In this document: in pieces, positions 2,937 through 7,745 of the stretch
Layout: each line of letters starts with the position of its first letter
Numbering within the stretch: the first letter of the stretch is position 1
From: Merismopediaceae cyanobacterium
GTDB lineage: Bacteria; Cyanobacteriota; Cyanobacteriia; Cyanobacteriales; Microcystaceae
DNA length: 24,770 nt
Reading direction: 5' to 3'
Assembly: GCA_040382535.1 (NCBI GenBank)
Contig: JBEIFD010000001.1
Location: 1-24,770, forward strand
Notes under the pieces: generated by a model
What the model was told of the DNA's origin: nothing
What the model saw: only the letters and a program-made list of their open reading frames with translations
Database searches by the model: none
Program-made: the position numbers and the translations under genes

Positions 2937-2976
2937 GCGATCGCTTTTTTAGGTTGAAGGGGTAAAGGGCGATCGC
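2937..2976 (+). repeat. HIP1-bracketed mini-element, copy A
   Basis: GCGATCGC-TTTTTTAGGTTGAAGGGGTAAAGG-GCGATCGC. Confidence 0.75.
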
Positions 2977-3027
2977 GGATAATCTCTTAAAATAGAGAAA
3001 GCTAAATATTGCAGAGAGAAAGAAACT

Positions 3028-3627
3028 ATGGCAACCACCGCAGACGACGTATGGCAACTGTTAGCAGAATTAACCACTGCTCAAAAAGAGACCGACCTGC
3101 AACTCAAGGAAGTTAGTCAGGCACAAAAAGAGACCGATCGCCAACTCAAAGAATTAGGCAAACAAACCGATCGCCAACTCAAGGAATTAGGTAAGCAAAT
3201 TGGGGGACTCGGTGCAAAATTTGGCAGTTTTACCGAAGGTCTAGCTCTTCCTTCAATGGAAAAGATTCTAAGACAACGGTTTGGTATGGAAGTAGTCAGT
3301 CCTAGTGTGCGAGCTAGTAAAGAAGGAAAACACATGGAAATTGATGTTCTTGCCTATACCAATGGTAATTTGAATATTGCCTATGTCGTCGAGGTTAAAA
3401 GTCATGCTAGGGAAGATTCTATTACTCAATTAAAAAGTATTCTGCAACGTTTTCGTGACTTTTTCCCTGAACACAAAGATAAACAACTCTATGGCATTTT
3501 AGCCTCCGTTGATATGTCCCCCGAATTACGTCAAAAAACGTTACAAGAAGGATTTTATGTTGCTCGGATTCAGGATCAAGTTTTTGAACTCGATACGCCT
3601 GACAACTTTCAACCCCAAAGTTATTGA
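3028..3627 (+). CDS. DUF3782-like coiled-coil + PD-(D/E)XK nuclease-fold protein
   Basis: N-terminal KETDRQLKEL repeats, then GSFTEG and the EIDVL...VEVKS nuclease-like motif. This is a multi-copy cyanobacterial family. Confidence 0.8.
   Translation: MATTADDVWQLLAELTTAQKETDLQLKEVSQAQKETDRQLKELGKQTDRQLKELGKQIGGLGAKFGSFTEGLALPSMEKILRQRFGMEVVSPSVRASKEGKHMEIDVLAYTNGNLNIAYVVEVKSHAREDSITQLKSILQRFRDFFPEHKDKQLYGILASVDMSPELRQKTLQEGFYVARIQDQVFELDTPDNFQPQSY
3079..3198 (+). repeat. In-frame tandem repeats in the coiled-coil region
   Basis: 33-bp units at 3133-3165 and 3166-3198 (ACCGATCGCCAACTCAARGAATTAGG...), plus a related 42-bp unit at 3079-3120. Confidence 0.8.
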
Positions 3628-3651
3628 CTTTTTTCAATTTACAAGTGAGGT

Positions 3652-3693
3652 GCGATCGCGTTTTTTTTGAATGGGGGGTTAAAGGGCGATCGC
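3652..3693 (+). repeat. HIP1-bracketed mini-element, copy B
   Basis: GCGATCGC-GTTTTTTTTGAATGGGGGGTTAAAGG-GCGATCGC, between the convergent stops at 3627 and 3711. Confidence 0.8.
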
Positions 3694-3710
3694 TTTTAAA
3701 TGAGTCTAAA

Positions 3711-6700
3711 CTAAATCGTTACAAAATTAGTTAATCCCAAGGCTCCTGATAAACCAGTGACTTCAATAATGGCATCAGTAGTTTGACTAAAGCCTGCCGT
3801 TGCGTCATTAATTGCCACAAAAGATCGGGTTCCAAAAGTAAATTGAGCAGCAGAGTTTGCTCCGAAGTTAGTAGTGGTTAATTTGGCGATGATTCCTGCA
3901 TTATCCAAGGTTGCAACTGCTCCTGCATTGGTGAAACTTGATCGTGCGGTGGTAACGAGAAAGAGATCATTGCTTCCATTTGCATTGAAGTCTTTAATCA
4001 CATCATAGTTAGCTAAAAGGGAATCTGTGAGGATTTTGTAACCAAAGCGATCGCTGCCTAAGCCACCTGTCAGAGTATCTTTACCTGCTGCACCTGTCAG
4101 GATGTTGTTTGCACCATTACCTAAAATGATGTTATTAAGAGCATTTCCTGTCCCATTAATTGCAGTTGTTCCTGTTAGGGTTAGGTTTTCTAGGTTGGTT
4201 CCTAATGTATAAGTGATAGAGGACTGAACGGTATCAATTTCTGTGGCAAGGGTAGAGGTTTCTGTTACGAGATCGCCCGCATTATCTACGATATAGTTGT
4301 CATTTCCCAGACCACCAATCAGAGTATCGACTCCTGCTCCACCATTGAGAATATTATTGGCACTGTTACCCGTAAGTATGTTATTACCTGCGTTACCTGT
4401 ACCGTTGATCGCGGCCACACCATTCAGTTTCAGATTTTCAACATTGGCAGGTAAAATACGAGAGATGCTACTTTGCAAGGTGTCGGTGATAATGACTTCG
4501 CCAACGGAGGCGTTAGGATCAAGAATAGCATTCCCAGGACTAGAAAGAGTAACGAGGAATGCTTCATCAGCTTCGTTGAGATTATCGTTGAGGATGGGAA
4601 TACTCAGGGTGGCAAAGGAGCTATTGGGGGCAATGGTTAGAGTCCCTGTTTTGCTGGTGTAGTCAACGTTTGCAGTGGCATCAATGAGAGTAGTGGTGTA
4701 GTTGACGGTGATGGCTTGGCTAACAGGACTACTTAGGCTGACGGTGAGGTAGGCGTTGCTGTCTTTTCCTTCGACTACGCGGATGTCGTTAATGGAAAGC
4801 GAGGGAAAGTCATCGTTGGTAATGGTTCCTGTAACAGCAGCAGTTGTACCAACATTGTAGGTTGTTCCTGTTGCTAGGGAGAGGGCAACAGTGTCGTCAT
4901 TTTCAATGGTAGTATCGGCAGTGGGATCAATAGTTAAGGTTGCTGTAGCTGAGTTGGCTGCAAAGTTAATGGTTTGGCCAGTACCAGGAGTTGCACCTGT
5001 ATAATCGGTGCTATCGGCTGTTCCTGCAATGCTGTAATTGACGGTGAGGGCTGAGGTTGTGGCTCCGGTACGGGTGAAGGTATAGACCAGATTGTTTGTA
5101 CCATTTTCAGTGACGCTTGCGGGAGAAACGGCTAGGGTGATGGTGGAGAGGGAAGCATAGAAAAAGCTATTGCTGGTGAGATTTAAGCCTGTTCGATCGC
5201 GGATGATACCGATGAGTTCGTCGGGTTCGGTGTTGGGTTTATCGATTAAAAGTTGAGTATCGGTTCCGACTACGTTCAAAAGATAGGTCATACCGCCTTT
5301 AAGTTGAATGATGTCTCCTTCGGTGGGGTTGAAGTCGGCAATGTCGGCATAGTCGTTTGTACCCGCGTTGGTTGTTAGTCCGTCGTCGTAGCCAATCCAA
5401 GTGGAGTCAGCTAAGATAAAGCGATCGCCGCCTGCTCCACCAGAAAAAATGTCCTTTTCACCGATGCCAGGGTTGAGACTATTGGGATTAACACCCGTCA
5501 GAAGGTCGTTACCCGCCCCACCGTTAATCGTGTCATTACCAGTCCCACCATTAATGGTATCGTTACCATCACCAGTAACAATGGTGTCGCTTTTTGAAGT
5601 GCCTGTCAGTTGGAACTGCTCGATATTACTAAAAGTAACTTTGTCAGTGCCACCAAAAGTATAGTTTGCGGAATAGTTGCCATTAAATCCCCCGGAGCCA
5701 TTACTGGCAATAGAAGAGACTAGACCATCATAAATATTGAGAGTGTACTCCAAAATCAATACGTCAATCCCAGTACCACCATCAACCACATCATTACCAA
5801 AGCCAGGATTGACCGTATCGTTGTCCCCCCCAAGAGTGAGAGTATCATTGAAACGTCCCTGTAGCTTGATGATATCGTTGCCACTGCCTGTTATTAAATC
5901 AAAGGCTTCGATATTGGTATAACTACTGCCAAAAGGTGCAATAGAGATGCCTTGGGGAACATCTAGGGTTAAATTACTGGTGCTACTGCTGAAATTGTAG
6001 AAGATTTTATCCGTACCATTACCGCCATCAACGATATTATTGCCAGCCCCAGGGGTAATCCAGTCATCACCCTCCCCGCCATTAATTGTGTCGTTACCAT
6101 TACCAGTAACAATGGTGTCGCTTTTTGAAGTGCCTGTCAGTTGGAACTGCTCGATATTACTAAAAGTAACTTTGTCAGTGCCACCAAAAGTATAGTTTGC
6201 GGAATAGTTGCCATTAAATCCCCCGGAGCCATTACTGGCGATAGAAGAGACTAGACCATCATAAGTATTGAGAGTGTAGTCTAAAATCAATACGTCAATC
6301 CCAGCACCACCATCAACCACATCTTGGCCTCGGAGGGGGCGAATTGTATCATTGCCACTCGTCCCCGTAATTACATCATTGCCATTTGTGCCAGTAAAAT
6401 CCTGTTTCTCTACCTGAATAACTTGGCCATTAAGCGTAATTGTTCCGTGATCATTCTCAGCCTTCAAAGCCTGCAAAGTCGTAATACTTAGACTTTCTCC
6501 TTGTACCAAAGCCGCAAAAATTGCTCCCTCATCCCCCGCACTATCAGAAGTATTAATCTGAGCATCCACAAAATGCCCAAACTCCTCCAACAAAACATTT
6601 ACCAAAGACTGTTGACTTGCCGTTGCCAAAAACTGCTCAGACAAATAAATCTTATTCGTACTGCTGGCATAAGCCCCATTTGCCGTACCCCAAACATCGC

Positions 6701-6893
6701 TACTGACTATTTCAATTTGGGGAAACAGACTAAAATTGCCACTTTGCCATTGCGTTTTAAACGTTGCCGCCGTTGCAAAATCATAATTTGATCCAAACGC
6801 CGTATCAAACAGACTTCAGAAATTGCTCAAATTAGCAAAATTCGTGAGCTGGGCATAAACAACGGAAAAATCGAAAGAAAAAGAGCTTATCAT
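3711..6893 (-). pseudogene. Large RTX Ca-binding / Calx-beta surface protein with bluetail-like C-terminus, interrupted by an in-frame TGA at 6816-6818 (remaining ORF 3711-6644)
   Basis: ATG at 6893 is in frame with the 977-aa ORF and reads MISSFSFDFSVVYAQLTNFANLSNF*SLFDTAFGSNYD...NGAYASSTNKIYLSEQF. The protein has many GGxGxD nonapeptides, Calx-beta modules (LSINDIRVVEG...LNDNLNEADEAF) and the C-terminus DAIIEVTGLSG. Confidence 0.8.
5548..6323. repeat. ~245-bp near-identical direct repeat (5548-5792 and 6079-6323), offset 531 bp
   Basis: Both copies encode DVVDGGxGIDVLILxYTLNxYDGLVSSIASNGSGGFNGNYSANYTFGGTDKVTFSNIEQFQLTGTSKSDTIVTGxGNDTING. Confidence 0.9.
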
Positions 6894-6930
6894 GGATTGT
6901 TTACCTCTAATTGTATTTATTTCTATTGAC

Positions 6931-6959
6931 AGTATCTTACCCATTGTCAGAAAAGTCAA
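6931..6959 (-). promoter_or_regulatory. Putative sigma70-type promoter of the RTX gene
   Basis: Minus strand TTGACT (6959-6954), 17-nt spacer, GATACT (6936-6931). The -10 box ends 37 nt upstream of ATG 6893. Confidence 0.5.
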
Positions 6960-7019
6960 TATAGAAAGTTCATACATCTTTTACAATCACTCAATGTAGG
7001 GAAAATTAAATACAAAAAC

Positions 7020-7056
7020 GCGATCGCCCTTCCTGATTAAGAAAAAACGCGATCAC
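7020..7056 (-). repeat. HIP1-bracketed mini-element, copy D (inverted, one HIP1 degenerate)
   Basis: Minus strand GTGATCGC-GTTTTTTCTTAATCAGGAAGG-GCGATCGC, followed by GTTTTTG (start of another unit). It begins 2 nt after the DUF2442 stop. Confidence 0.6.
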
Positions 7057-7058
7057 GT

Positions 7059-7367
7059 CTAAATAGAAACAGTAATCTTATTCTGGAAATAACCCCATTC
7101 TTGAAACTGAGTTTGTAATTCAGGAACGTTACAAAAAGCTAAAAAATATAAATATTCTGGCGCAAAATCTGCACCATTTTGCCAACAAACTGTCCCTAAT
7201 TCCTGATCAAGTTCAAATTGTTGAAATAGTAATAAATCTTGTAAAGGTTCAAAGACTTTACCTGTCAAACTTTCAGATAAATCTGCTATGCCCTCAGAAC
7301 CATTGTTAAATTTCAAGGCAATTTTATAATTGTCAACGTAACTAGCAGAAATAATATGCAAAAACAT
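7059..7367 (-). CDS. DUF2442 domain protein (putative antitoxin)
   Basis: MFLHIISASYVDNYKIALKFNNG...GKVFEPL...GTVCWQNGADFAPEYLY. The ATG at 7367, 4 nt after the upstream stop, is preferred over 7388. Confidence 0.8.
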   Translation of the reverse strand: MFLHIISASYVDNYKIALKFNNGSEGIADLSESLTGKVFEPLQDLLLFQQFELDQELGTVCWQNGADFAPEYLYFLAFCNVPELQTQFQEWGYFQNKITVSI

Positions 7368-7371
7368 TAGT

Positions 7372-7629
7372 TTACTCCAATGGTTCAATCCAATTAATAA
7401 TTTCGCGTTGACGACACAGTTTCCAATTAGCCGCTAGTTCAGATTGATGAAGATCGTGCCACTCTAAAACATGACGGAGCGATCGCTTCGGAAATGATCC
7501 CGTTACTACTCCAGTGTCGATCTCAACAATTACCTCGTATTGTCCATACTTAGCATGGTAATGAGGTGGTAAATGATCATTCCAGTAGAAGCTAATTGTG
7601 ATTCCTAAAAATCGACTAACAACAGGCAT
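7372..7629 (-). CDS. DUF4160 domain protein (putative HicA-like toxin)
   Basis: MPVVSRFLGITISFYWNDHLPPHYHAKYG...LEW...LAANW is the typical DUF4160 signature. Confidence 0.85.
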   Translation of the reverse strand: MPVVSRFLGITISFYWNDHLPPHYHAKYGQYEVIVEIDTGVVTGSFPKRSLRHVLEWHDLHQSELAANWKLCRQREIINWIEPLE

Positions 7630-7704
7630 TTTTAAGTAAAATAGGTAATTTGTTCAAAGTTTAACATTCTATCGTCTCTTTGGACGTGACTCAATAGAAA
7701 TAAA

Positions 7705-7745
7705 GCGATCGCGTTTTTTGAATGGGGAGTTAAAAGGGCGATCGC
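7705..7745 (+). repeat. HIP1-bracketed mini-element, copy C
   Basis: GCGATCGC-GTTTTTTGAATGGGGAGTTAAAAGG-GCGATCGC, nearly identical to copy B. Confidence 0.8.

Follow-up and report, generated by a model that had tools for sequence, protein, structure and literature searches.

The four short repeats described here are members of a family of tiny non-coding modules spread through the genome of a unicellular cyanobacterium, in each of which the palindrome HIP1 (GCGATCGC) bounds a short spacer on both sides. The family comprises about 280 copies, of which 157 are intergenic pairs of two perfect HIP1 sites and 120 are intergenic pairs in which one HIP1 carries a single mismatch. Sites differ by the presence or absence of a unit made up of one spacer (17-30 nt) and one HIP1; this unit occupies an otherwise single HIP1 site, and an occupied site reads HIP1-spacer-HIP1. 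These elements are probably HIP1-delimited modules that are copied into HIP1 sites and resemble SDR5 and REP elements, with a role in termination being secondary. To our knowledge, the function of HIP1 itself has remained unresolved for thirty years. Among named genomes, MAGs of Snowella come closest (98% and 89% amino-acid identity), a genus that NCBI places in Coelosphaeriaceae, and the host is a Snowella-like unicellular lineage outside Nostocaceae.

Elements and gene cassettes in the window

The window is the whole analysed stretch of 24,770 nucleotides. A sequence-only reading had located four HIP1-bracketed copies in it, with copy D inverted and all of them intergenic, and this description proved accurate for 4/4 copies. 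The elements and the cassettes between them are as follows; gene calls are crude longest-ORF calls.

2937-2976, plus strand: copy A, two HIP1 around a 24-nt spacer, T-first strand on plus
3028-3627, plus strand: DUF3782 gene, a multicopy cassette gene between copies A and B
3652-3693, plus strand: copy B, HIP1, 26-nt spacer, HIP1
3694-7048, no strand assigned: variable cassette with the RTX/Calx-beta gene and the first HIP1 and spacer of copy D, absent in congener G001
3711-6644, minus strand: RTX/Calx-beta gene (Pfam matches)
7020-7056, minus strand: copy D, inverted, with the T-first strand on minus, a 21-nt spacer and a second (outer) octamer, GCGATCAC, one mismatch from HIP1
7059-7629, minus strand: cassette of two small overlapping genes between copies D and C
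7059-7388, minus strand: DUF2442 gene (Pfam matches)
7372-7629, minus strand: DUF4160 gene (Pfam matches)
7705-7745, plus strand: copy C, HIP1, 25-nt spacer, HIP1

Only 4 edits separate B from C, a pair that had been called near-identical and that stands in direct orientation. The window has 20 further HIP1 sites, none of them paired at the spacing of A to D, in agreement with the earlier statement that the window holds no further copies. Copy A lies between the divergent starts of a carotenoid-oxygenase gene and the DUF3782 gene, and copy C between those of the DUF4160 gene and an ATP-grasp gene. Copy B, with TTTT after it, lies where the DUF3782 and RTX genes converge at their 3' ends, and copy D begins directly after the DUF2442 stop codon and runs into a U-rich tract. 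Given this adjacency and this tract, copy D is terminator-like; beyond the short T run of B and the U-rich tail of D, A and C have no such tails, and a simple terminator scan of the four window copies called 0/4.

The copies mark off gene cassettes, a delimitation that had gone unnoticed in the sequence-only reading. The DUF3782 gene has several paralogues in this genome and its relatives, and the DUF2442/DUF4160 cassette is presumably toxin-antitoxin-like, judging from what is known of both families. The segment 3694-7048 (3.36 kb), bounded by copies B and D, is missing from contig C43 of G001. Both end points of the missing segment lie in HIP1 octamers, and the junction in G001 runs from the B spacer straight into the GCGATCAC octamer of D.

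A genome-wide family with a one-strand hairpin

Perfect HIP1 pairs with spacers of 17-30 nt number 201 genome-wide, with a spacer mode of 21 nt, and 157 of them (78%) are intergenic, against 24% of all HIP1 sites. Neighbour pairs amount to 10-23 per 1-nt spacer bin at 17-30 nt, fall to about 2 at 31-48 nt and return to about 5 beyond 49 nt, with zero pairs genome-wide at 2-10 nt; the count at spacers of 15-30 is 2.4 times that at a control spacing of 60-75. Roughly 5-10% of the HIP1 copies of this genome are found in paired units. Most elements are solitary or form gene-free chains.

The spacers fall into families. There are 214 similar spacer pairs, compared with 23-29 when spacer middles are shuffled, and single linkage yields a superfamily of 74 spacers with copies A and D inside. 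Of 194 inter-contig pairs, 187 show homology that stops at the HIP1 brackets, and only 7/194 have any similarity in the 300-nt flanks. For example, copy A has two near-identical spacers on other contigs with unrelated flanks, and copy D belongs to a GATTAAG-loop subfamily of 13 copies, most of which also have unrelated flanks. When spacer cores are matched with few mismatches, HIP1 or near-HIP1 almost always stands at their flanks. In several arrays, units are chained head to tail through a common HIP1, up to 4-6 units long, and contig C415 carries three consecutive 21-nt units with a 29-bp period.

Every copy has a stem. On the T-first strand, a T run follows the first HIP1 and a purine run precedes the second, forming a hairpin of 12-16 bp. 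The imperfect hairpin that had been inferred for the four window copies is real on this strand, at -17 to -21.5 kcal/mol against -11 to -13 kcal/mol on the other; the RNA hairpin of copy A has -18.1 kcal/mol on plus and -12.2 on minus, and copy D folds at -21.5 kcal/mol (z -4.8). Covariation, proposed earlier as a check on the fold, gave no support, with no base pair in the elements covarying beyond column composition.

Such hairpins raise the question of whether the family consists of ordinary intrinsic terminators or hairpins for RNA stability, evolved in place or moving with genes, whose stems were converted to HIP1 by a genome-wide HIP1-creating force; because HIP1 is its own reverse complement, both stem arms would become HIP1. 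Gene 3' ends are indeed preferred. Convergent regions hold 32% of elements but 21% of single intergenic HIP1 sites (chi-square p = 0.001), and in tandem regions the median distance from an element to the upstream stop codon is 37-51 nt. The T-first strand folds better than shuffled-spacer controls (-16.4 vs -14.8 kcal/mol), and a T tract follows the hairpin on this strand in 31/106 isolated copies (29%; background 10.5%), as the position and tail of copy D exemplify. Furthermore, in G002 a classic terminator with HIP1-half stem ends stands at a site that holds elements in three congeners, which suggests that some copies may arise in place. However, convergence does not explain near-identical spacer loops in unrelated flanks, and copies A and C, like 18-19% of elements, lie between divergent gene starts. 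Sense and antisense orientations (34 vs 22) do not differ significantly (p = 0.14), the orientation within arrays is constant whatever the gene direction, and chains of up to 4-6 units exceed what termination needs. The missing covariation and a six-fold lower pair count in congeners of the same HIP1 density also count against terminators as the origin of the family, which is unlikely. Of the terminator or RNA-stability role that the sequence-only reading had offered as an alternative, the lean towards 3' ends and the 29% T-tract share stand, whereas the divergent settings of A and C, the orientation counts and the constant array orientation do not fit it.

Empty sites, cassette joints and comparison among congeners

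Element abundance is lineage-specific despite equal HIP1 density. The six congeneric genomes carry 4,274-5,806 HIP1 sites each, and their perfect pair counts are 201, 205, 129, 88, 34 and 35 in G000, G004, G001, G002, G003 and G005, against control-spacing counts of 84, 94, 72, 64, 46 and 45 in the same order. Congeners of equal density thus differ six-fold in pair count, and paired HIP1 cannot be put down to background density.

Two clean empty sites, each a single HIP1 at the orthologous position in congeners, were found. The site of copy A is a single HIP1 in G005 with homologous flanks, and in G001 it holds a B/C-type spacer, a case of different occupants at one site in close relatives. 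On contig C84 of G000, 1,157 bp with three elements and two cassettes stand where G004 has one HIP1. Copy C shows the other side of the comparison, with orthologues in G001 and G004 that have 3-6 spacer changes and flanks of 91-98% identity. The sequence-only reading had envisaged a mini-repeat, REP-like or mobile, with a HIP1 left at either end, and had named further copies, clustered spacers, an excess over HIP1 density and empty single-HIP1 sites among the checks; these came out in its favour, and the proposal is mostly supported. Each clean empty site, taken alone, is equally readable as a precise deletion between two HIP1 sites. The direction of events rests on few cases and on an outgroup argument made from unrooted similarity ranks. 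In addition, most elements cannot be compared across genomes, having one non-syntenic flank, which fits the model and limits the test, and the compared contigs were picked for high element density.

HIP1 sites and elements coincide exactly with the ends of insertions, deletions and synteny breaks. Homology-block ends lie no more than 8 nt from HIP1 in 20/61 cases against 4% at random (eight times chance), and inside elements in 14/61 against 2.5%. Similar pairs on one contig number 20, with 1.25 expected, and 20/20 are direct repeats. These copies flank cassettes of 0.3-4 kb with genes on either strand, many of them toxin-antitoxin, which encode ParE/ParD, DUF5615 or HTH proteins, and the arrays hold a single orientation regardless of gene direction. 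One conserved element is joined to three different right-hand neighbours in three genomes. Plain single HIP1 sites also act as joints, and HIP1 appears to act as a recombination point.

This arrangement recalls integrons, in which small accessory cassettes, often toxin-antitoxin, are gained and lost between similar hairpin sites (attC) in direct orientation. An integron-like system with one hairpin site per cassette and an unidentified HIP1-acting site-specific recombinase would account for the gain and loss end points exactly in HIP1, for the changing neighbours of the conserved element and for the strand-specific fold, which would take the role of a folded attC site. Yet the integron integrase IntI was not found, the best TIGR02249 match reaching 50.5 bits against a cut-off of 265; the assembly searched is 85% complete, and absence is unproven. 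attC sites are 57-141 bp long, and the present elements of 31-46 bp have about one third of that length. Cassette genes here lie on both strands, the majority of elements are solitary or in gene-free chains, and single HIP1 sites serve as joints as well. We regard this possibility as doubtful, slightly more so than the terminator origin.

Another known route is that of REP/REPIN-type repeats, moved by RAYT or by an IS200/IS605-type Y1 transposase acting on single-stranded hairpins. REP elements (PMC3116915) share with the present ones their shortness, intergenic position, imperfect palindromes, hundreds of copies, bias to gene 3' ends and lineage-specific expansion, and Y1_Tnp matches (9, 5, 3, 2, 0 and 0 in G000, G004, G001, G002, G003 and G005) run parallel to abundance. 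Six related genomes are a non-independent sample for this parallel, though. No RAYT, a gene usually flanked by such repeats, is present here; the Y1 genes stand beside tnpB in ordinary IS605-type units that have their own C-rich end hairpins and contain none of the HIP1 elements. Neighbouring copies of similar sequence are all in direct orientation (20/20), never in the inverted doublets that form the replicative unit of REPINs, and the conserved part of the elements is the host's own iterated palindrome. Movement by such a transposase is very improbable. As a separate observation, the paired HIP1 with their A/T extensions can be read either as inverted termini or as a duplicated 8-bp target, of which a MITE would have both, its terminal repeats being shared with a parent insertion sequence.

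Relation to SDR5, possible mechanism and significance

The nearest counterpart is SDR5, described as a small dispersed repeat of about 21 nt (Elhai et al. 2008, via PMC13756078) found in HIP1 (PMC4390886, PMC5861425). It is inserted between the third and fourth nucleotide of one HIP1, which it splits, and occurs in Nostoc punctiforme and other heterocystous cyanobacteria (via PMC4390886, PMC5861425, PMC13756078), being limited to Nostocaceae (PMC5861425). Both are very small, non-coding and dispersed, occur strictly with HIP1, show signs of mobility and lack a transposase. SDR5 measures about 21 nt and the spacer mode here is 21 nt (range 17-30), but the unit gained here is the spacer plus an 8-nt HIP1. 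SDR5 splits one HIP1, whereas two complete HIP1 sites bracket the present spacers; HIP1-splitting inserts of 18-30 nt do not recur in this genome, and the two geometries could be reconciled only by an SDR5 module that itself has HIP1 halves at its ends. The present elements have many spacer subfamilies instead of one consensus, form chains, are associated with cassette joints, and belong to a Snowella-like lineage, not to Nostocaceae. In Synechococcus PCC 6301, a precise deletion flanked by HIP1 (Gupta et al. 1993, via PMC13756078) is similar in that both end points lie in HIP1 octamers and one HIP1 is left in the short allele; it was a single laboratory event, unlike the recurrence across natural congeners and the repeated spacer family seen here. 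Such precise excision has been documented, as has integration of transforming DNA that depends on HIP1 (PMC13756078), and current ideas on HIP1 include DNA uptake, methylation-dependent integration and recombination (PMC13756078, PMC5861425).

Under the favoured reading of HIP1-delimited modules, HIP1-bounded DNA segments would be joined into HIP1 sites by recombination or by cut-and-join at the palindrome, presumably through an unidentified enzyme acting in trans. The mini-elements may be the smallest of these segments, or cassette end pieces left after HIP1-to-HIP1 loss. Their T run and purine run are inferred to bring the HIP1 stem from 8 bp up to 12-16 pairs, via G-T/G-U pairs and only on one of the strands, and this one-strand extension may matter for a single-stranded DNA intermediate. 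Terminating or RNA-stabilising hairpins at gene 3' ends could then be a secondary effect. Simple joining of arbitrary HIP1-bounded fragments would predict neither the narrow length range, with its trough at 31-48 nt, nor the conserved ends with their T run and purine run; for these, an added structural or selective constraint is needed. No copying enzyme or intermediate behind the elements has been identified. A bolder version makes HIP1 the crossover site of a cassette exchange without integron integrase, with the hairpins as minimal mobile units and docking sites and an unidentified HIP1-specific nuclease or recombinase that would take up, rearrange and remove accessory genes, many of them toxin-antitoxin, at these joints. 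It remains speculative, with the odds against it; if true, the iterated palindrome would gain a concrete role in genome plasticity and in the integration of transferred DNA.

HIP1 has been thought to spread by substitution, not insertion; in this genome, at least some paired HIP1 units are gained and lost as insertions. Between congeners, natural gains and losses of cassettes and breaks in synteny have their exact end points in HIP1 octamers. Such MAGs are probably more fragmented on account of these hairpins, which in annotation can pass for terminators. HIP1-associated mini-repeats, represented by SDR5 in Nostocaceae, are extended to another lineage and to a second, bracketing geometry. Snowella lineages that have or lack the expansion while being equal in HIP1 density provide a comparative system in which to seek an enzyme acting at HIP1 and to ask whether HIP1 favours modular gene exchange.

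Four bracketed copies and the genome-wide spacing of HIP1

The window is contig C1 of the genome under study (G000; 4.21 Mb in 791 contigs, 41% G+C, completeness 84.7%), and it contains 28 copies of the HIP1 octamer against 0.2 expected. The sequence-only reading had claimed four HIP1-bracketed mini-elements here, and all four are confirmed as intergenic HIP1 pairs (4/4):

Copy A, 2937-2976: 24-nt spacer, in the gap between two divergently transcribed genes, for a carotenoid oxygenase and a DUF3782 protein
Copy B, 3652-3693: 26-nt spacer, where the DUF3782 gene and an RTX/Calx-beta gene converge
Copy D, 7020-7056, inverted: 21-nt spacer, outer octamer GCGATCAC, immediately 3' of the stop codon of a DUF2442/DUF4160 pair
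Copy C, 7705-7745: 25-nt spacer, between the DUF2442/DUF4160 pair and a divergent ATP-grasp gene

On one strand, termed the T-first strand, the spacer of each copy has a T run at its 5' end and a purine run at its 3' end. Four elements alternate with three cassettes (small accessory-gene segments) in this region, with an element at each end; the cassettes encode DUF3782, RTX, DUF2442 and DUF4160 proteins. The DUF3782 gene (window 3028-3627) is multicopy in G000 (contigs C187, C318, C90 and C269), and related genomes have it in tandem arrays, such as the three copies on contig C6 of G009. Facing this gene is a weak sigma-70-like match (9/12; window 2954-2983), with its -35 hexamer within the copy A spacer and its -10 hexamer just past the second HIP1; copy A may contribute promoter parts at its site.

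Across G000 there are 5,557 HIP1 sites (1.32 per kb). The density of neighbouring pairs peaks for spacers of 17-30 nt, at 10-23 per 1-nt bin. It is zero for 2-10 nt, drops to about 2 in the 31-48 nt range and is near 5 at longer distances. Perfect pairs with spacers of 15-30 nt are intergenic in 157 of 201 cases, compared with 24% of all HIP1 sites, and the intergenic spacers have a mode of 21 nt; these calls rest on a crude longest-ORF gene set, 82% coding. If one of the two octamers may carry a single mismatch, 120 more intergenic pairs qualify and the total rises to about 277 elements. Outside the peak, HIP1 is avoided at short range, the random model giving about 6 pairs per bin at 31-48 nt. 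A separate small family with a 13-nt spacer, apart from the peak, was also observed in G000 outside the window (C18:2229-2257, C18:3848-3876, C201, C326, C40, C540 and C376); several of its spacers are related, and seven of eight members are intergenic.

Spacer families and orthologous sites in relatives

Clustering sorted the spacers into a superfamily of 74, including copies A and D, and many smaller families, with copies B and C as a two-member cluster of their own. Spacer pairs at an edit distance of 20% or less number 214, compared with 23-29 after shuffling the spacer middles with the ends kept. Any similarity in the 300-nt flanks was found for only 7 of 194 similar pairs on different contigs, and for only 4 of 49 pairs within 2 edits. 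Spacer cores that match with few mismatches almost always have HIP1 or near-HIP1 on their flanks. Since the flanks are dissimilar and the cores are bracketed in this way, homology starts and stops at the HIP1 brackets, the signature of a dispersed repeat that is copied without regard to its context. Units also join head to tail through a common HIP1 into chains, the longest of 4-6 units, in which adjacent units often come from different subfamilies. The possibility that the unit is an extended palindrome (A run, HIP1, T run) was rejected: among single intergenic HIP1 sites, 16% of sides carry a T run, and 21 sites have one on both sides, against about 20 expected.

The nearest named genomes are Snowella MAGs. 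Snowella belongs to Coelosphaeriaceae according to NCBI, and the host is therefore not a member of Nostocaceae. Pairs at spacers of 15-30 were compared with those at a control spacing of 60-75 in G000 and its congeners G001-G005.

Table. HIP1 pairs in G000 and its congeners; ratio, pairs at 15-30 divided by pairs at 60-75
Genome; HIP1 sites; pairs at 15-30; pairs at 60-75; ratio
G000; 5,557; 201; 84; 2.4
G004; 5,806; 205; 94; 2.2
G001; 4,758; 129; 72; 1.8
G002; 4,274; 88; 64; 1.4
G003; 4,888; 34; 46; 0.74
G005; 5,005; 35; 45; 0.78

From these ratios, the excess within the genus is limited to the part nearest G000. Elsewhere in the order it is patchy, being present in G014, G024, G026 and G030 and absent in G022, G018, G021, G023 and G028. 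Genome G026, of another family, has chains with the same T-run/purine-run architecture (C105:2757-2854 and C85:6461-6526), so this architecture extends beyond Snowella. One G026 spacer resembles the type of copies B and C.

Comparison of orthologous sites bears on a prediction of the sequence-only reading, namely that close relatives would have empty sites with a single HIP1. Two such sites were found: the copy A site in G005 is a single HIP1 between homologous flanks, and a site on contig C84 is one HIP1 in G004 and 1,157 bp in G000, comprising three elements of one type plus two small cassettes. At the copy A site, G001 is occupied by a spacer of the B/C type, and in G002 synteny breaks at that very HIP1. 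At other sites the spacers of G000, G004 and G001 are different or strongly diverged between flanks that are 90-97% identical, and orthologues of copy C have 3-6 changes in 25 nt compared with flanks 91-98% identical. An automated search of both flanks against all fetched congener loci returned no empty site; colinearity on both sides held for just two loci, copy C and one more, both of them occupied, and most elements have one flank that is non-syntenic in the congener loci. The proposal of a mobile mini-repeat is thus supported by dispersed spacer families, unrelated flanks and single-HIP1 alleles in congeners. The elements are a lineage-specific family of dispersed HIP1-bounded modules, in which the unit that varies consists of a spacer and one HIP1 and occupies a HIP1 site.

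Cassette joints and candidate enzymes

Cassettes are also gained, lost and rearranged exactly at HIP1 sites and at the elements. G001 is without window 3694-7048 (the RTX gene and the copy D spacer), and its junction joins the copy B spacer straight to the GCGATCAC octamer of copy D. When five contigs were compared with congeners, 20 of 61 homology-block ends lay within 8 nt of HIP1 (4% at random) and 14 of 61 inside an element (2.5% at random). One element on contig C3 is kept in three genomes, each with a different right-hand neighbour. Similar spacers on the same contig amount to 20 cases against 1.25 expected, all 20 in direct orientation; the segments between them are 0.3-4 kb long with genes on either strand, and those examined encode ParE/ParD, DUF5615 (PIN-like), HTH and isochorismatase proteins. 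The RTX/Calx-beta gene, wholly absent in G001, shares about 90% identity across 2 kb (window 4810-6868) with G008, a genome of another genus. The RTX cassette may be a recent transfer; no HIP1 pair was found in the flanks of the G008 homologue, and that locus is uninformative.

The Y1 transposase was considered as the mover and rejected: its genes lie in ordinary IS605-type units, and nearby HIP1 elements lie outside them. These units (Y1 tnpA plus tnpB) are located in G000 at C332:797-2698, C24:9955-11701, C532 and C337, and their ends carry C-rich hairpins of their own. Y1_Tnp matches in six congeners (9, 5, 3, 2, 0 and 0) parallel the abundance of HIP1 elements, and this six-genome correlation is the only remaining link. 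No integron integrase scored above the cut-off in G000, whose assembly is 84.7% complete.

Folding, the terminator reading and known systems

The four window copies fold at -17 to -21.5 kcal/mol on the T-first strand and at -11 to -13 on the opposite strand. Genome-wide, the T-first strand reaches -16.4 kcal/mol, compared with -14.8 in shuffled-spacer controls, with stems of 12-16 pairs, and the opposite strand folds no better than such controls; the gain arises entirely because the T run faces the purine run. In three registers, spacer positions equally far from the 5' and 3' ends showed no covariation, and column composition fully accounts for the 65-85% pairing at positions 2-5.

The other role proposed from sequence, that of a terminator or RNA-stability element, holds only in part. 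On the T-first strand, 29% of isolated copies have a T tract behind them; the figure is 11% for the opposite strand and 10.5% for the background. Elements lie in convergent regions more often than single intergenic HIP1 sites (32% vs 21%) and in divergent regions less often (18% vs 30%; p = 0.001 for both shifts together), and in tandem regions the median distance from the upstream stop codon is about 40-50 nt. Set against this placement at 3' ends are the lack of covariation and an orientation preference that is not significant (34 sense, 22 antisense). A simple terminator scan called none of the four window copies, owing to loop size and internal mismatch, and Rfam gave no match over the whole window at gathering thresholds. 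At site L123 of G002 (G002:C112, ~1330-1400), orthologous to G000:C415:1700-1736, where three congeners carry HIP1-bracketed elements, G002 has an ordinary terminator, with a perfect stem whose ends are halves of HIP1 and a T run behind it. This terminator may represent a precursor state or convergent evolution.

Among described systems, the nearest is SDR5 of Nostocaceae, a comparison made without aligning sequences. According to PMC4390886, PMC5861425 and PMC13756078, SDR5 is a repeat of about 21 nt located only within HIP1. SDR5 splits HIP1, whereas the G000 elements are bracketed by it, belong to another lineage and comprise many subfamilies; no repeated HIP1-splitting inserts of SDR5 geometry were found in G000. 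REP/REPIN sequences and integron attC arrays each have some features in common with the elements, but both failed defining tests. A HIP1-flanked deletion is known from one event in the laboratory (Gupta et al. 1993, as cited in PMC13756078). The searchable literature yielded no account of short-range HIP1 pairs, and Xu et al. 2018 described HIP1 periodicity at kilobase scale only.

We infer that HIP1-bounded segments would be joined into HIP1 sites through recombination or cut-and-join at the palindrome, by an enzyme that has not been identified. The mini-elements would be the smallest such segments, or cassette end pieces remaining after HIP1-to-HIP1 deletion; simple fragment joining fails to account for their narrow length range and fixed ends. 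The hairpin, formed on one strand, may be of use to a single-stranded intermediate, and terminator or RNA-stabilising activity at 3' ends would be a secondary effect. HIP1 is tied here to insertion events and cassette exchange, and the comparative system formed by these genomes makes the link testable.
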